From contig OZ244034.1 of the NCBI GenBank assembly GCA_965215185.1, positions 64,001-128,000 of the forward strand: a stretch of 64,000 nt of DNA. The letters run 5' to 3'. Shown piece by piece: positions 984 through 23,234 of this stretch. The stretch is from Acidimicrobiia bacterium. GTDB taxonomy: Bacteria; Actinomycetota; Acidimicrobiia; Spongiisociales; ZC4RG35. Every line of letters starts with the position of its first letter. The stretch's first letter is position 1. Under the pieces are notes generated by a model, which had not been told where the DNA came from, did not search any database, and worked only from the letters and a program-made list of their open reading frames with translations. The position numbers and the translations under genes are program-made.

Positions 984-1060
984 CCGGCGCAGCGGAGCGT
1001 ATCCCCGTGGTGGGTCGTCTCTCGAGTCGGCGGTCCTTCCCTCGCCCGGGACAGGGGAGG

Positions 1061-1069
1061 TGCTATGCT
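1061..1069 (+). promoter_or_regulatory. Extended -10 promoter element for the cobalamin operon
   Basis: TGcTATGCT (TGn-TAnnnT) immediately upstream of the riboswitch. Confidence 0.5.
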
Positions 1070-1084
1070 TTTTGTCTGACCGCC

Positions 1085-1195
1085 GGGAGACAACGGTGGT
1101 CTTTCCCAGGGACGTAGCGAAGTCCGGTTGAAGTCCGGCGCTGTCCCGCAACTGTTAAGCCCTTCGAGAAGGGACAAGTCAGGACGCCTGGTCCC
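1085..1195 (+). promoter_or_regulatory. Cobalamin (B12) riboswitch aptamer
   Basis: Core GAAGTCCGGTTGAAGTCCGGCGCTGTCCCGCAACTGT, then a hairpin (CCCTTC-GA-GAAGGG) and AAGTCAGGA; directly upstream of btuFCD-cobO. Boundaries approximate. Confidence 0.92.
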
Positions 1196-1287
1196 GGGAT
1201 GACGGATGAACCTCGGATGAAGATGTAGTTCGTCGGCGGGTGTTCCCGTTTGACTCTCTCCCTTCATCCTCCTCAAGGAGGATGTTT

Positions 1288-2334
1288 ATGTATGCAACCA
1301 CCCGGCGGAAGGCTGGAAGATTGCTGGTCTTTCTGGCATTGATCTCGCTGATATCTGCGGCCTGCGGAGCAGACCAGGATGCTCCTTCCGCCGCCCCCAC
1401 CACGGCCGCGGCTCTCGCGACCACCCAAGCTCCAACTACTGCAGCGGCCCCTACCACGACTGAAGCCACCACGACTACCACCGCGGCGCCCGCCACCACT
1501 TCTACCCTGCCTGCGTTCCCCGTTGAGGTGCAGGACTCGCTGGGTACGGTGATGATCGCTACTCGCCCCGAGCGTATTGTTTCACTGTCGTCCACCATCA
1601 CCGAGATGCTGTTCGCTATCGGCGCCGGCCCCCAAGTGGCGGCAGTGGACAGCTATTCCGATTTTCCGCCCGAGGCGCCCATCACGGATTTGTCTGCTTT
1701 CACTCCCAACCTCGAGGCGATCGCGGCCGCCGCCCCCGATTTGGTGATCGCCTCCTACGATCCTGGTGATCTGATGTCATCCCTCGAAGCGCTGGGGATA
1801 CCGGGGATGATGATGCCAGCGGCCAACACGTACTTTGACGTGTGGCTCCAGATCGAGCAGTTGGGTCTGGCGACCGGTAATGCCATTGGTGCGACCGACC
1901 TCGTGCGCCACCTGCGGGGGAGAATCACGGAGATAATTGCGGACAGCCCAGAGGTTTCCTTCACTTATTACTACGAGTTGGATCAAAACCTCTACTCGGT
2001 TACCTCTACCACCTTTATCGGGCAACTGTTTGGTTTGCTAGGTCTGGAAAGCATCGCTGATCCTGCCGATGAATATGGCTTCGGCTACCCGCAGCTTTCT
2101 TCGGAATACATCATCGAAGTCGATCCCGATCTCATCTTGTTGGCCGACACCTTGTGCTGTGGGCAGAACGCCGAGACCGTGGCCTCCCGCCCGGGCTGGT
2201 CGTCGTTGACCGCGGTGACCAATGGGCGGGTGATCGAACTGGATGATGGGATCGCCTCCCGGTGGGGTCCGCGCATCGTCGAATTGTTGGAGGTGGCCGC
2301 CGCGGCCGTCGCCGAACTGGCCCCCAAAGGGTGA
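1288..2334 (+). CDS. btuF: Cobalamin ABC transporter substrate-binding lipoprotein
   Basis: Lipobox ISAAC, Thr/Ala-rich linker, PERIVSLS..TEMLFAIGAG, SRWGPRI. Start moved to ATG 1288 behind AAGGAGG; riboswitch context. Confidence 0.88.
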   Translation: MYATTRRKAGRLLVFLALISLISAACGADQDAPSAAPTTAAALATTQAPTTAAAPTTTEATTTTTAAPATTSTLPAFPVEVQDSLGTVMIATRPERIVSLSSTITEMLFAIGAGPQVAAVDSYSDFPPEAPITDLSAFTPNLEAIAAAAPDLVIASYDPGDLMSSLEALGIPGMMMPAANTYFDVWLQIEQLGLATGNAIGATDLVRHLRGRITEIIADSPEVSFTYYYELDQNLYSVTSTTFIGQLFGLLGLESIADPADEYGFGYPQLSSEYIIEVDPDLILLADTLCCGQNAETVASRPGWSSLTAVTNGRVIELDDGIASRWGPRIVELLEVAAAAVAELAPKG

Positions 2335-7264: not shown

Positions 7265-8512
7265 TCAGGTGCCCAGGCGCCAGCCCGACATGTATTCGCG
7301 CTGAGAAGCGGTGAGTTGCTCCAGGCTCCCCCCCAGAGCGGCTATCTTGGTCCGAGCCACCATCTGGTCGATCTCCTCCGGCAGCACGTAGACCCTTGGT
7401 TCCAAGGAATCCTGGTTTTCGATCAGCCATCGAAGCGCCAGCGCCTGGTTGGAGAACGAAAGGTCCATCACATCGGCGGGATGGCCTTCGGCGGCGCCCA
7501 AGTTGGCTAGGCGTCCCTCTGCCACCAGGAACAGGCGACGACCGTCGCTCATGCGGTATTCCTCCAGATTGGGTCGCACCGTTCTTTTCGCCACCGCTTG
7601 ATCGGCAAGGGACTCCACGTCGATCTCCACATTGAAATGACCGGCGTTGGCCAAGATCGCCCCGTCCTTCATCACGCCCAGATGGTCTTCGGAAATGACA
7701 TGACGGTTGCCGGTGACTGTGATGAAGATGTCGCCCCTGGGCGCTGCCTCCCGGGCAGTGAGCAGCCGGTGTCCATCCATCAAAGCCCGAAGCGCTCGGA
7801 CCGGGTCTACTTCCACCACGATCACCTGTGCTCCCATTCCCTCGGCTCGCACGGCCACGCCCTGTCCGCAGTGGCCATAGCCGACCACCACTACCGTGGA
7901 GCCGGCCAATAACACATTGGTGGCGCGGACGATCCCGTCCATGGTCGACTGGCCGGTGCCGTAATAATTGTCGAAGAGATGTTTGGTGGCCGAGTCATTG
8001 ACCGCCACCACCGGCAGCCGAAGCGCCCCTTCCCGCTCCATGGCTCGCAACCGGTTGATCCCGGTGGTGGTCTCCTCGTTGGCGCCCAGGGGAGACAGAT
8101 GGGGATGGTTTCGATGCAGGGCCGAGATAAGATCGCCTCCATCGTCCACCAGCAGATGGGGGCGACGACGAAGCACCTCGTCGATGTGACGGTGATATTG
8201 CTGTGAATCCTCCCCCCGGACGGCCAACACCTGCACTCCTTCCGAGGCCAGCGCCGCCGCCACGTCGTCCTGGGTGGAGAGCGGATTGGAGGCGCACAGA
8301 GAAAGTTCCGCACCCGCCTCGCGCAGGGCGAGCATCAAATTGGCGGTCTCCGAGGTCACATGTAAACAGGCGCCCACCCGCATTCCAGACAGCGTCTGGT
8401 CTTTGGAGAGTTGTGTTCGCACGGAGGAGAGCACCGGCATGCGGCTTGCTGCCCATTCCACCCTCAACCGGCCTTGGGAGGCCAAGCCGGGATCGGCGAT
8501 GTCAGATGGCAC
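7265..8512 (-). CDS. ahcY: Adenosylhomocysteinase
   Basis: ACLHVTSETA, SNPLSTQDD, EETTTG, KHLFDN.YGTGQS, NAGHFNVEI, EGRLANL..AEGHP. Confidence 0.97.
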   Translation of the reverse strand: MPSDIADPGLASQGRLRVEWAASRMPVLSSVRTQLSKDQTLSGMRVGACLHVTSETANLMLALREAGAELSLCASNPLSTQDDVAAALASEGVQVLAVRGEDSQQYHRHIDEVLRRRPHLLVDDGGDLISALHRNHPHLSPLGANEETTTGINRLRAMEREGALRLPVVAVNDSATKHLFDNYYGTGQSTMDGIVRATNVLLAGSTVVVVGYGHCGQGVAVRAEGMGAQVIVVEVDPVRALRALMDGHRLLTAREAAPRGDIFITVTGNRHVISEDHLGVMKDGAILANAGHFNVEIDVESLADQAVAKRTVRPNLEEYRMSDGRRLFLVAEGRLANLGAAEGHPADVMDLSFSNQALALRWLIENQDSLEPRVYVLPEEIDQMVARTKIAALGGSLEQLTASQREYMSGWRLGT

Positions 8513-20036: not shown

Positions 20037-20624
20037 ATGACGCAGTTGTCCTCTCGACCCGCGCTGGTGGTGGTGGATGTCCAAAACGACTTCGCCGACC
20101 CGCGGGGTTCGCTGTATGTGCAGGGAGCGGGCGCAGTGGTGGAGGCGGTGAACCGGTTGGTGGAAAGCGCCGGTGCCCAGGATTGGCCGGTGTTCTACAC
20201 CCAGGACTGGCATCCGCAGACCACTCCCCATTTCGCCAAGGACGGGGGGATTTGGCCGGTGCATTGTGTGGGAGGGTCGACTGGAGCGGCCTTTCATCCC
20301 GATTTGAAGGTGGAGGGGGTGTCGGTTAAGAAGGGCGGCGCCGGGGAGGACGGCTATTCGGGATTCACCATGCGAGACCTAGTGGAGGGCAAGGACCGGC
20401 CCACCGAGTTGGATTCGCTGCTGCGCCAGGACGGGGTCACCAGGGTGGTGGTGGTCGGGCTGGCATTGGACTATTGCGTGAAGGACACTGCCCTGGACGC
20501 GGTCCGGTTGGGATACGAAGTGGAGGTGCCGCTCGGCGCCACCGCGGCGGTCAATCTGTCTCCCCACGATGGCGACCAGGCTGTCGCGGCGCTGAAGGCG
20601 GCGGGGGTTTCGGTTACTGGCTGA
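20037..20624 (+). CDS. pncA: Nicotinamidase/pyrazinamidase
   Basis: VVDVQNDF, QDWHP, WPVHCV, YSGF, GLALDYCV. Confidence 0.93.
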   Translation: MTQLSSRPALVVVDVQNDFADPRGSLYVQGAGAVVEAVNRLVESAGAQDWPVFYTQDWHPQTTPHFAKDGGIWPVHCVGGSTGAAFHPDLKVEGVSVKKGGAGEDGYSGFTMRDLVEGKDRPTELDSLLRQDGVTRVVVVGLALDYCVKDTALDAVRLGYEVEVPLGATAAVNLSPHDGDQAVAALKAAGVSVTG

Positions 20625-22224
20625 GGGACGCGGCTCGACGCAGGAGTAGGCCGCGGTAGGATTTCCACAGAGGATTCTCGGTGGGCCGCAGGGTGGGAAA
20701 GAGTATCACATCCCGGATGTGAGTGCGGTTGGTCAGCAGCATCACCAAGCGGTCGACTCCCAGGCCCAGGCCTCCGGTGGGAGGCATTCCGTAACCCAGG
20801 GCCAGCACGAAATCGTCGTCGACGGGGTGCAACTCCGGATCGTCCGCTCCCAACAGAGCCGCCTGGTTCTCGAATCGGAAAAGTTGATCGACCGGGTCGT
20901 TCAACTCCGAGAAGGCATTGGCGAACTCCACCCCGGCGATGAACAATTCGAAACGTTCGGTGAGTCGGGGATCGCGGGGGTGTCGGCGCGCCAGTGGAGA
21001 GACTTCCAACGGGTATTCCGTCACGAAGGTGGGGTTACGCAGTTTGGGGACGGCCAGCCGGTCGAACAGCTCGTAAACGACCCGCCCGCTGGTCCATCCC
21101 TCTCGAATATCTAGCCCCAGTTTCTCTGCCTGTCCTTGCAGTAAGTCCCGGGGTGTGTCGAGGGTGACTTCTTCTCCCAGCACTTCGCTCACCAGTTCCA
21201 GCATGGTGACTTCCCGGTAGGGGGGTTCGAGAGAGAGGGGAGTCTCCAACATGGGGTGCCCGCCCAATGCCTCGCCAGCGGCCTCTTCTCCCACTGTCGT
21301 GGTCCCCGTCGCTTTGGCGGCCACCGCCGGGATGACCTCTTCTATGAGTCTCATCACGTCCCGGTAGTCGCAGAATGCCTGATAGGACTCCAGCATGGTG
21401 AATTCGGGGTTGTGGGAAGAGTCCACTCCTTCATTGCGGAAGATGCGGCCGATTTCGAACACCCGCTCGAACCCGCCGATGATCAACCGTTTCAGATGCA
21501 GTTCGGTGGCGATCCGCATGTAGAGCTCTAGGTCCAAGGCATTGTGGTGAGTGAGAAAAGGACGAGCGGCGGCGCCGGCTGCCCGGGAGGAGAGGATGGG
21601 GGTGTCCACTTCCATGAATCCCCGGCTATGGAACTGATGGCGCAGTTCCGCTACCACCGCCGAACGGATCTCGAAGGTCCGACGGCTCTGGGGATTTACC
21701 GCCAGGTCCAGGTGGCGGTGGCGGGAGCGTTGCTCGATATCCCGAAGCCCTTTCCACTTGTCGGGTAGGGGAGCAAGACATTTGGCAAGAAGCGATAGTT
21801 CGTTGACGTGGATGGAGAGCTCCCCCCGGCGGGTGGTGATCACCTCTCCGGTAGCGCCGATCCAGTCGCCCAGATCCAGTTGAGATAGCACCGGTCCGGA
21901 TTGGGGGCTCAATGTGGAGCGGGATATGAATAGCTGCAGGTCTCCGGCTTGATCGGAGAAAGCGATGAACACCAAACGGCCGAAGTCTCGGATCGACCGG
22001 ATTCGTCCAGCCACCGCCGCTTTCTCTCCGGTCTGGACATCGGGTCCCAGGCCACCGTAGGAGTCCCGAATATCCCGGGTGGTATGGGTGCGGTCGAAAC
22101 GGGTCGGCCAGGTTTCCAGTTGCTGGGAGGAGAGACTATCCAGGCCTTCCAGACGCTCTTGCACTACCTTTTCCCAAAGCCCGACCGATCCCGGATCTGC
22201 GTCGCTGGGTTGCTGGTCAGTCAT
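20614..22224 (-). CDS. lysS: Lysine--tRNA ligase (class II)
   Basis: OB-fold anticodon domain, LPDKWKG, RIFRNEG...HNPEFT, YGMPPTGGLGLGVDRL. Confidence 0.97.
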   Translation of the reverse strand: MTDQQPSDADPGSVGLWEKVVQERLEGLDSLSSQQLETWPTRFDRTHTTRDIRDSYGGLGPDVQTGEKAAVAGRIRSIRDFGRLVFIAFSDQAGDLQLFISRSTLSPQSGPVLSQLDLGDWIGATGEVITTRRGELSIHVNELSLLAKCLAPLPDKWKGLRDIEQRSRHRHLDLAVNPQSRRTFEIRSAVVAELRHQFHSRGFMEVDTPILSSRAAGAAARPFLTHHNALDLELYMRIATELHLKRLIIGGFERVFEIGRIFRNEGVDSSHNPEFTMLESYQAFCDYRDVMRLIEEVIPAVAAKATGTTTVGEEAAGEALGGHPMLETPLSLEPPYREVTMLELVSEVLGEEVTLDTPRDLLQGQAEKLGLDIREGWTSGRVVYELFDRLAVPKLRNPTFVTEYPLEVSPLARRHPRDPRLTERFELFIAGVEFANAFSELNDPVDQLFRFENQAALLGADDPELHPVDDDFVLALGYGMPPTGGLGLGVDRLVMLLTNRTHIRDVILFPTLRPTENPLWKSYRGLLLRRAASLSQ

Positions 22225-22282
22225 GAGGCTTCAACCTACCAGCCAGAGGCAACAGAAGAAAGACAGTGTCCTTGATGCCAAG

Positions 22283-22326
22283 AAAAAACCGACCCGCCCT
22301 CGGGAGGGGAGGGAGGGCGGGCCGGT
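22283..22326 (-). terminator. Intrinsic terminator (third hairpin of the putative sRNA)
   Basis: ACCGGCCCGCCCUC-loop-GAGGGCGGGUCGG followed by UUUUUU. Confidence 0.8.
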
Positions 22327-22426
22327 TGTATGCCTGCCGCCCCGGGAGGGGTGGAGGGCGGACAGGCTGCCCGCCGGCCTTCCGGGAGGGGACGGGGAAA
22401 GCCGGCAGGAGGAGTCGTCTTGTTCC
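22283..22426 (-). ncRNA. Putative small RNA with three C-rich stem-loops (6C/cuckoo-like)
   Basis: Three consecutive GC-rich hairpins, each with a CCCCUCCC loop; the last is followed by U6; consensus promoter directly upstream. Confidence 0.8.
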
Positions 22427-22431
22427 GCCGA

Positions 22432-22460
22432 ATGATAGACAGTTCCCAAGGGTATGTCAA
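22432..22460 (-). promoter_or_regulatory. Sigma70/SigA-type promoter
   Basis: TTGACA (22460-22455), 17-nt spacer, TATCAT (22437-22432). Confidence 0.85.
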
Positions 22461-22475
22461 CTCTTAGCGAAGGGT

Positions 22476-23234
22476 TTAGGAATTCAGTCGCAGCACTGCC
22501 AGCAAACCCCTGAGGGTGAGATTGTCTTCTATGTGGGTAATCGTCTCGCACACCGGCCCGATTAGCCTGGACAACCCCCCGGTGGCTACCACCGGCACGT
22601 CCTCGAGATGCTGTTCGGAGCAAATGCGTCTCACCAGACCGTCCACCAGACCCGCCCATCCGAAAACCAATCCGCTCTGAACAGCCTCGGTGGTGTTGCG
22701 TCCGGTGGCCTGTTTGGGGGCGGTGAGTTCCACACGCCGAAGTGCGGAGGCCGCTGCGGCCAGCGCGTCTCCCGCTACTTGCACTCCGGGGGCGATCGCT
22801 CCACCGCAATACGCTCCCGAGGAGTCGATCACATCCACCGTGGTGGCGGTTCCAAAATCAACGACTAGTACGGGCGCTCCGAACCGCTCCACGGCGCCAA
22901 TGGCGTTGACTACCCGGTCGGCGCCCACTTCGCGGGGGTTGTCGATGCGTATTTCCATACCGGTACGGGTTCCGGGACCCACCACCACCAAGGGACCGTT
23001 CACCATCTCCGCCAGCACGGGGCGCATCGCCGCGATGGCAGTGGGTACCACACTGGACAGCGCCGCGCCGTCCAGGGGTTTGGGAACTCTTGCGAGCAGT
23101 CCCTCAAAGAGAATGCGATATTCGTCAGTGGTGCGGGACACCTCGGTCGAGATCCGCCATCGGTGTTTGAGGAATTGACCTTGGTAAGCCCCTACGACTG
23201 TTTGCGTGTTGCCAATGTCGACAGCTAAGAGCAT
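22476..23234 (-). CDS. coaX: Type III pantothenate kinase
   Basis: LAVDIGNT, SSVVP, VGADR, VDFGTAT, GGAIAPG, ATGG. Confidence 0.96.
   Translation of the reverse strand: MLLAVDIGNTQTVVGAYQGQFLKHRWRISTEVSRTTDEYRILFEGLLARVPKPLDGAALSSVVPTAIAAMRPVLAEMVNGPLVVVGPGTRTGMEIRIDNPREVGADRVVNAIGAVERFGAPVLVVDFGTATTVDVIDSSGAYCGGAIAPGVQVAGDALAAAASALRRVELTAPKQATGRNTTEAVQSGLVFGWAGLVDGLVRRICSEQHLEDVPVVATGGLSRLIGPVCETITHIEDNLTLRGLLAVLRLNS

Follow-up and report, generated by a model that had tools for sequence, protein, structure and literature searches.

A genus-restricted small RNA with three identical C-rich loop motifs between coaX and lysS in an actinobacterium

Introduction

Does the short gap between coaX and lysS in this genome contain an RNA gene of its own and, if so, which strand is expressed, which known RNAs does it resemble, and what could it do? 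The preliminary description of the locus had proposed an independent, strongly expressed minus-strand small RNA with three C-rich hairpin loops, possibly a new three-module family. We analyzed the locus in a window of 64,000 nucleotides (the whole stretch examined, part of a single 3.12-Mb contig; coordinates of the element and its neighbors are positions within this window), using related genomes, the Rfam profiles, RNA-library contigs and the literature. The element is a real, expressed and genus-restricted small RNA; the earlier interpretation was correct as to the type of RNA, and the claim of a new family was overstated. The lines of evidence and the alternative readings that they bear on are described below.

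Results and Discussion

Genomic locus and host

The element occupies positions 22283-22460 on the minus strand, between coaX (22476-23234) and lysS (20614-22224), and lies 58 nt upstream of lysS, with which it shares the strand. The flanking genes, all on the minus strand, also include ftsH, two unassigned ORFs and panC. The genome carries four WhiB-family genes scoring above the Pfam cut-off, thus the host is an actinobacterium; the gene order ftsH...panC-coaX-lysS, which is typical of actinobacteria, fits this assignment too. Both the element and the motif of the 16S rRNA 3' end that contains CCUCC are present once in the genome. PF02261 (PanD, aspartate decarboxylase) was not found in the window's own genome, though panC and coaX are present in the window, and beta-alanine may come from another route in this host.

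Promoter and hairpin architecture

The -35 hexamer TTGACA (22455-22460, minus strand) is located 15 nt past the coaX stop codon and is followed, after a spacer of 17 nt, by the -10 hexamer TATCAT (22432-22437). This putative promoter matches the consensus in 11 of 12 positions and is the sole sigma-70-like site in the region 21900-22900, where 0.1 such sites are expected from shuffled sequences. The transcription start is predicted from the promoter at about 22425. The promoter is followed by a variable, A/C-rich 5' tail (22413-22426) that contains CUCCUCC, by three hairpins, and by a U tail (UUUUU in this genome, 22283-22287).

Hairpin 1 (22370-22409) has a 14-bp stem and the loop CCGUCCCCUCCC (22395-22384). 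Hairpin 2 (22332-22367) has a 12-bp stem with one bulged base and the loop CCACCCCUCCC (22354-22344). Hairpin 3 (22288-22326), with a 14-bp stem and the loop CCUCCCCUCCC (22312-22302), doubles as the terminator, or 3'-end hairpin. The three loops are 11-12 nt long, contain 9 or 10 C each, and have CCCCUCCC in common. The promoter, the CUCCUCC tail, the hairpins and the U tail are thus all present in the sequence as the preliminary description had reported.

The minimum-energy fold of the minus strand consists of exactly these three hairpins (-84.8 kcal/mol, z = -5.1, with none of 200 shuffles as good), whereas the plus-strand fold (-87.2 kcal/mol) has z = -2.35 and is equaled by 4 of 200 shuffles. 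Three CCCCTCCC motifs spaced 20-50 nt apart are found once in the window and in none of 100 shuffles. When the whole genome (3.12 Mb) was scanned for adjacent hairpins with C-rich loops, the element was the only clear place, with one weak pair elsewhere in the genome (600930-601013). A terminator scan of the locus returned no match; its loop limit of 3-8 nt excludes the 11-nt loops.

Conservation within the genus

Every one of the 17 genus genomes carries the element (the window's own plus, by blastn, 16 of 16 others), with the copies in G001 and G014 cut by contig ends. Contig C10 of G011 carries the element with its flanks twice, identical and in opposite orientation, at 8085-8315 (+) and 947965-948195 (-) (L024 and L004), which may be an assembly artefact or a large inverted duplication. 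The alignment comprises 12 distinct genus sequences; it omits both truncated copies, the second copy of G011, and G009, G012 and G016, whose RNA body is identical to that of G013.

All 34 loop columns of this alignment are invariant, including 12 of 12 in hairpin 1 and 11 of 11 in hairpin 2, and the stem arms are 89-100% identical; identity falls to 42-54% in both linkers and both tails (5' and 3'), where indels of 1-3 nt occur. For the 5' tail, the mean pairwise identity is 0.48, with 1 of 18 columns invariant; in all species this tail is G-poor and contains CA/AC repeats (ACAAC, CACAA), although its sequence is unconserved. The U tail reads UUACUUUU, UUACCC or UACC in the relatives, a good U tract being present only in the window's genome. 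The 1-3-nt indels in the linkers break any reading frame, and a coding function was rejected on these grounds. A plain intrinsic terminator was likewise rejected, given the three hairpins, the invariance of the loops and the element's own promoter.

Standard base pairs occupy 478 of the 480 pair cells, one pair being broken in two sequences. Variation is seen in nine pairs, in every case through one-sided changes (C-G/U-G, G-C/G-U, G-U/A-U). Seven of them belong to the stem of hairpin 1 (C-G/U-G, G-C/G-U); in hairpin 3, one pair is U-A, U-G or C-G and another is G-U or A-U; the stem of hairpin 2 is unvarying, and its bulge varies between U, C and A. The loops are therefore conserved, as had been claimed, and the stems tolerate only pair-preserving changes. 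Stem covariation, which the preliminary description had suggested looking for in relatives, was not found: none of the 40 pairs shows a compensatory double change among the 12 genus sequences, so that covariation in the strict sense is not statistically shown. The observed pattern did not surpass that of the shuffle control, although sliding of the partners lowers pairing to 34-57%. Support for the predicted structure comes from the one-sided, pair-preserving changes and from the folding energy.

TTGACA with a 17-18-nt spacer and TATTAT or TATCAT was found in 14 of the 17 genus genomes. The loci of G005, G006 and G008 (L015, L014 and L016) differ in that TTGACA-17-TACCAT is shifted upstream by about 25 nt and is accompanied by a second -10-like box (TAACAT or TACTAT), which suggests a longer 5' end or two starts in these genomes.

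Downstream of the element, the extended -10-like box TGgTAGGTT (22233-22241, minus strand) lies 8 nt before the lysS ATG (22224), where it had been noticed previously. Of 15 full-length genus loci, 12 retain a TAGGTT box at a distance of 8-9 nt upstream of the lysS ATG; of the remaining three, the extract ends inside the box in two and does not reach it in one. Judged by its position and conservation, TGgTAGGTT is probably the own promoter of lysS, giving a leaderless mRNA separate from the small RNA.

The pattern of variation also discriminates between the strands. Among the aligned pairs, reading the plus strand instead of the minus strand would convert G-U into A-C in 52 cells, and the reverse case is limited to 2 cells; accordingly, 99.6% of cells are paired on the minus strand versus 89.2% on the plus strand. 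The earlier argument that G-U pairs favor the minus strand thus holds for the genus alignment.

A discrete RNA in RNA libraries

At least half of the sampled words of the locus are contained in 16 runs from seven studies, and a small share of them in four RNA runs from two further studies, one study being labelled as a sponge metagenome. In all four RNA runs (26-35 million letters each), the main contig of the region 22100-22700 has a word depth of 55-148. It spans 22287-22414 in three runs and 22331-22414 in the fourth, where the alignment breaks at an indel. The layout is the same in all four runs, with adapter letters, the insert and adapter letters directly joined; the letters at the contig ends are those of two different Illumina adapter ends. 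The same runs gave no cover of coaX or lysS, an observation to which we attach no weight. The two matching letters at 22413-22414 may just as well belong to the start of the adapter, hence the insert ends at 22412. At the opposite end, three or four extra letters fit the sister species G007 (GGUUACC or GGUUACCC), and the four substitutions and one deletion of the contigs are those of G007/G015, i.e. of a G007-like sister species. The right end is identical in all four contigs, and the left end varies by 1 nt.

Such fixed ends are unlike DNA contamination, and we conclude that a discrete, stable RNA of about 130 nt exists, sufficiently abundant in two independent data sets to be assembled together with the adapters at its two ends. 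The mature RNA (about 128-130 nt, 22283-22412, minus strand) comprises exactly the three hairpins; the inserts end at the U tail and lack the 5' tail. A transcript of about 140 nt had been anticipated. The observed 5' end at 22412 is displaced downstream from the predicted start by about 13 nt, suggesting that the A/C-rich tail is trimmed back as far as the first stem or that a longer transcript is processed; the tail is probably trimmed off. The library evidence consists of contigs, from which level and strand are not read directly; contig depth and promoter quality give no more than a hint of the strong expression attributed to this RNA earlier.

In both sets of libraries, the adapter sides indicate that read 1 has the minus-strand sequence, which by itself is compatible with either strand, depending on the library protocol. 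In libraries of the dUTP type, the commonest stranded protocol, read 1 is antisense to the RNA, which here would mean a plus-strand RNA; some library kits give sense read 1, which here would mean a minus-strand RNA. The loops of a functional plus-strand RNA would be G-rich (GGGAGGGG); as Shine-Dalgarno mimics or as G-quadruplexes, they would have a protein or the 16S 3' end as their binding partner. The stable plus-strand fold agrees with such a possibility. We nevertheless regard it as very improbable, since the plus strand would turn the 52 G-U cells into A-C mismatches, its z-score is only -2.35, kits with sense read 1 do exist, and that side has no U tract. In addition, no plus-strand promoter was found by the scan of 21900-22900, and the sequence there is unconserved among species. 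The G-U asymmetry, the conserved promoter, the U tract and the lack of a conserved plus-strand promoter together favor the minus strand, to which we assign the RNA with high confidence.

Distribution beyond the genus

A search of 46 family genomes identified coaX in 24 of them, including the window's own. Outside the genus, it is represented by 22 loci from 20 sibling genomes, one of which (G186) is unpublished. In 13 of these 22 loci, lysS begins approximately 50-260 nt after coaX, and a run of C-loop hairpins follows coaX in none of the 22.

The sibling loci bear on two cis-acting explanations of the element. According to the first, it is an attenuator in the lysS leader with read-through into lysS. 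Its position on the lysS strand, 58 nt upstream of that gene, the weak U tail in most relatives and the assignment of 6C RNA to the Rfam class 'Cis-reg' are compatible with this reading. However, the RNA-library inserts end at the third hairpin, lysS retains its own conserved TAGGTT box, a T-box or other leader family was not detected with Rfam, and the sibling genera have lysS close after coaX with the element absent. A lysS leader is therefore extremely unlikely, and the element is an independent structured small-RNA gene, in agreement with the preliminary description.

The second cis-acting explanation is a 3' end element of the panC-coaX operon, i.e. a multi-hairpin terminator or stabilizer, of which a processed remnant accumulates and is inert in trans. 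The element starts 15 nt past the coaX stop codon and ends with a hairpin and a U tract, and the 5' end of the RNA at 22412 differs from the predicted start, as processing would give. A terminator, however, requires stems and not 34 invariant loop columns, a near-consensus promoter is conserved directly upstream, and the 13 sibling coaX loci with lysS close downstream do without the element. We consider this explanation quite unlikely and retain that of a separate small-RNA gene.

Searches outside the coaX locus covered the class, the order and metagenomes. A pattern search of the class for three CCCTCCCG motifs matched 15 of 401 genomes, namely three of the genus and 12 with tandem repeats or unrelated sequences; a control pattern matched 4. 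The covariance model R1, applied to 151 genomes of the order in a lossy search that scored 21 candidates per genome, identified only the window's own genome and a 27.6-bit match in apparent coding sequence. For the three-loop pattern in genome contigs, R1 matched one of the 80 listed loci (L064 from an unclassified MAG, 151 bits), among the matches listed. After folding of the 120 genome-contig stretches listed, L064 alone had the architecture, the rest being low-complexity sequences or tandem repeats. At least two homologs (L316 and L279) were found among the 118 metagenome-contig stretches listed. All homologs listed from genome and metagenome contigs are close to genus members. By these sequence comparisons, the element appears to be restricted to one genus, in that it was not found elsewhere in the genomes searched.

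Several unrelated or partial look-alikes were encountered. Three CCCCTCCCGG motifs are common in metagenomes (L223, L291, L226 and others) as unrelated GC-rich tandem repeats with a period of about 20-60 nt. Contig C134 of the genus member G001 contains, as a second locus, a single hairpin with the loop UCCCCUCCC (L025, ~1497-1545, minus strand), of which R1 matches the hairpin-1 part only, at 16.4 bits. In G490, a member of another family of the class, three tandem 24-nt units with CCCCCUCCC and a fourth C-loop hairpin (L190, ~1485-1600, reverse strand) occupy the gap between convergent ORFs.

C-loop candidates linked to ychF in sibling genera

Hairpins with long stems and C5-C7 loops were identified near ychF in 5 of 14 relatives outside the genus (G021, G022, G029, G040 and G030). 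The 14 relatives include the unpublished genomes G027 and G038, both without such hairpins. No comparable hairpins were found by ychF in the 16 genus genomes. The candidates are located at ~1262-1462 of L329 (G021) and ~1340-1500 of L334 (G022), both on the plus strand, as well as in L330/L331 (G029/G040) and L187, which equals L328 (G030). Four of them face ychF in convergent orientation, and the fifth shares the ychF strand.

The G021 candidate comprises TTGCAA-18-TATGAT (with TTGCAA resembling TTGACA), several hairpins, a terminal hairpin with the loop UCCCCCCUU and a U-rich tail; it has z = -5.7 and scores 34.4 bits with the Rfam 6C model (threshold 47), a level similar to that of the window's element. 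The G022 candidate is similar (z = -4.7). The ychF-linked loci receive the best, albeit weak, R1 matches (20.4 bits for G022). Glycine riboswitch aptamers, all above the Rfam threshold, are present downstream of ychF in both genomes, in tandem at 1021-1201 (-) of L329 (67.6 and 48.2 bits) and singly at 1138-1239 (-) of L334 (61.5 bits).

The ychF-linked candidates share with the element the family or order, long GC stems, C loops, a U-rich tail and a sub-threshold 6C score. They differ from it in the locus, the stems, the number of hairpins and the loop sequence, which is a plain run of C. Thus, C-loop RNAs seem to be common in the order but outside the Rfam 6C threshold. Few genomes underlie the comparison of the two loci, from which the genus may have exchanged the ychF locus for the coaX-lysS locus.

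Comparison with known RNA families

The Rfam search of the whole window returned no match at the gathering level, including the 6C and cuckoo families named in the preliminary description. Below this level, the best-scoring family was 6C (RF01066; 33.5 bits versus a gathering threshold of 47, E = 0.0084 for 401 bases against all families), with hairpins 2-3 aligned end to end. It was followed by ar14 (RF02344; 28.9 bits, threshold 58.8), with all three hairpins aligned (22285-22412), CcsR1 (RF02791; 25.0 bits, threshold 65.3) and ar7 (RF02342; 23.8 bits, threshold 60). These four families share one design class, thus the scores show likeness of design and not descent. A search of genomes with RF01066 yielded none in the own genome and two weak 24-bit matches in 41 relatives; this search was insensitive, leaving the element itself unreported and the Corynebacterium control below the cut-off, and so says nothing about the absence of 6C.

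6C RNA is a conserved feature of high-GC Gram-positives, and its name refers to the six conserved C of the stem-loops; of the three loops in the folded M. tuberculosis 6C, L2 and L3 alone are C-rich and conserved (PMC6486639). The element shares with 6C (B11/ncRv13660c in mycobacteria, scr3558 in Streptomyces) an actinobacterial host and adjacent GC-rich stem-loops with conserved C-rich loops, three here and invariant in 12 sequences, the last of which is the terminator. In contrast to 6C, it has a C-rich loop in all three hairpins, with CCCCUCCC and its fixed U in place of six consecutive C, is limited to the coaX-lysS locus of a single genus, and scores below the gathering threshold.

The closest counterpart of the three-module layout is alpha-r14, which forms three hairpins with the identical, ultraconserved anti-Shine-Dalgarno (anti-SD) motif CCUCCUCCC unpaired in each and with stems very different in sequence; the three motifs are redundant anti-SD seeds, and NfeR1 is Hfq-independent (PMC10746234). 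Like alpha-r14/NfeR1, the element consists of three hairpins that expose an identical anti-SD motif on stems of unlike sequence. It differs in the motif itself (CCCCUCCC versus CCUCCUCCC), in a score below 58.8, and in its host, which is not alphaproteobacterial as judged from WhiB. Since the phylum differs, the resemblance to the alphaproteobacterial alpha-r14 and alpha-r7 is most simply explained by convergence.

The CcsR1-4 ('cuckoo') RNAs of Rhodobacter and its relatives have hairpins with C-rich, anti-SD-like loops as well. CcsR units consist of two hairpins, several such genes being arrayed in tandem downstream of a gene for a small protein, whereas the element is present as a single copy in the genome and scores below 65.3 bits.

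By this comparison, the element is most likely a 6C-like regulator with the three-module layout of alpha-r14/NfeR1, and by their models it is a member of neither family. The possibility of a new three-module family, raised in the preliminary description, is unsupported in that form, as the literature already describes the layout for alpha-r14/NfeR1 (PMC10746234) and the C-loop mechanism for 6C (PMC6486639). A literature search identified no description of this element and no paper joining '6C RNA' and 'Acidimicrobiia', though supplements may contain wider 6C alignments.

Possible mode of action

The architecture suggests the following scheme. A separate small-RNA gene on the minus strand would be transcribed from its own strong housekeeping-type promoter, and the product would be trimmed to a compact RNA of three hairpins and about 130 nt. 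Each hairpin would display single-stranded CCCCUCCC, which contains the CCUCC core of the anti-SD sequence of 16S rRNA. Several mRNAs with G-rich stretches in their 5' regions (GGGAGGGG, ribosome-binding sites of the GGAGG type) could then base-pair with the loops, which would block ribosome access and probably speed decay, without a chaperone. The three loops may be redundant or may bind several sites at once.

A precedent is provided by 6C RNA: panD, dnaB and other mRNAs are bound by its loops at G-rich ribosome-binding regions, independently of chaperones (PMC6486639). With these mycobacterial targets as a lead, PanD was not found in the genome, and the dnaB upstream region was without such a site. 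Among the upstream regions of the neighboring genes, only that of panC has a G-rich box, AGGGGA before its ATG. Genome-wide, GGGAGGGG lies 3-12 nt before a start codon opening at least 80 codons for 61 of 333 sites, compared with 60 of 329 sites for the reversed control GGGGAGGG, which, on crude gene calls, means no enrichment of target sites.

The lack of target enrichment is one of the points that speak for a different mode of action, in which the RNA acts as a sponge for a protein or for the ribosome. The three C-rich loops would titrate a protein that binds C-rich single strands (e.g. of the KH-domain type) and would not pair with mRNAs, much as CsrB-type RNAs titrate CsrA. Identical loops on a very stable scaffold, with 34 of 34 loop columns invariant, and a high contig depth are typical of sponges. 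On the other side, we know of no global regulator in actinobacteria that binds C-rich loops, and the nearest characterized RNAs of such design act by base pairing. A sponge is, in our estimate, unlikely. On balance, and with modest confidence, we favor a mechanism in which the loops base-pair with translation start regions rich in G.

A bolder proposal concerns the scale of such pairing. The RNA would be a very abundant trivalent mimic of the anti-SD sequence, acting globally and not on few targets; by occluding strong GGAGG-type sites, it would shift translation towards leaderless mRNAs such as that of lysS. It would have arisen in one genus independently of alpha-r14 and replaced the ychF-linked C-loop RNA of the sibling genera. 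We regard this combination as a long shot.

Conclusions

The analysis adds an expressed and cleanly delimited small RNA to a little-studied actinobacterial lineage, with at least one of the RNA runs containing it labelled as a sponge metagenome. Since the Rfam 6C model misses both the element and the ychF-linked candidates, C-loop RNAs of such class are probably under-annotated. Three identical anti-SD loops on unlike stems, a design known from alphaproteobacteria, occur in actinobacteria too, beside the two-loop 6C design, which suggests repeated invention of multivalent blockers of ribosome-binding sites.
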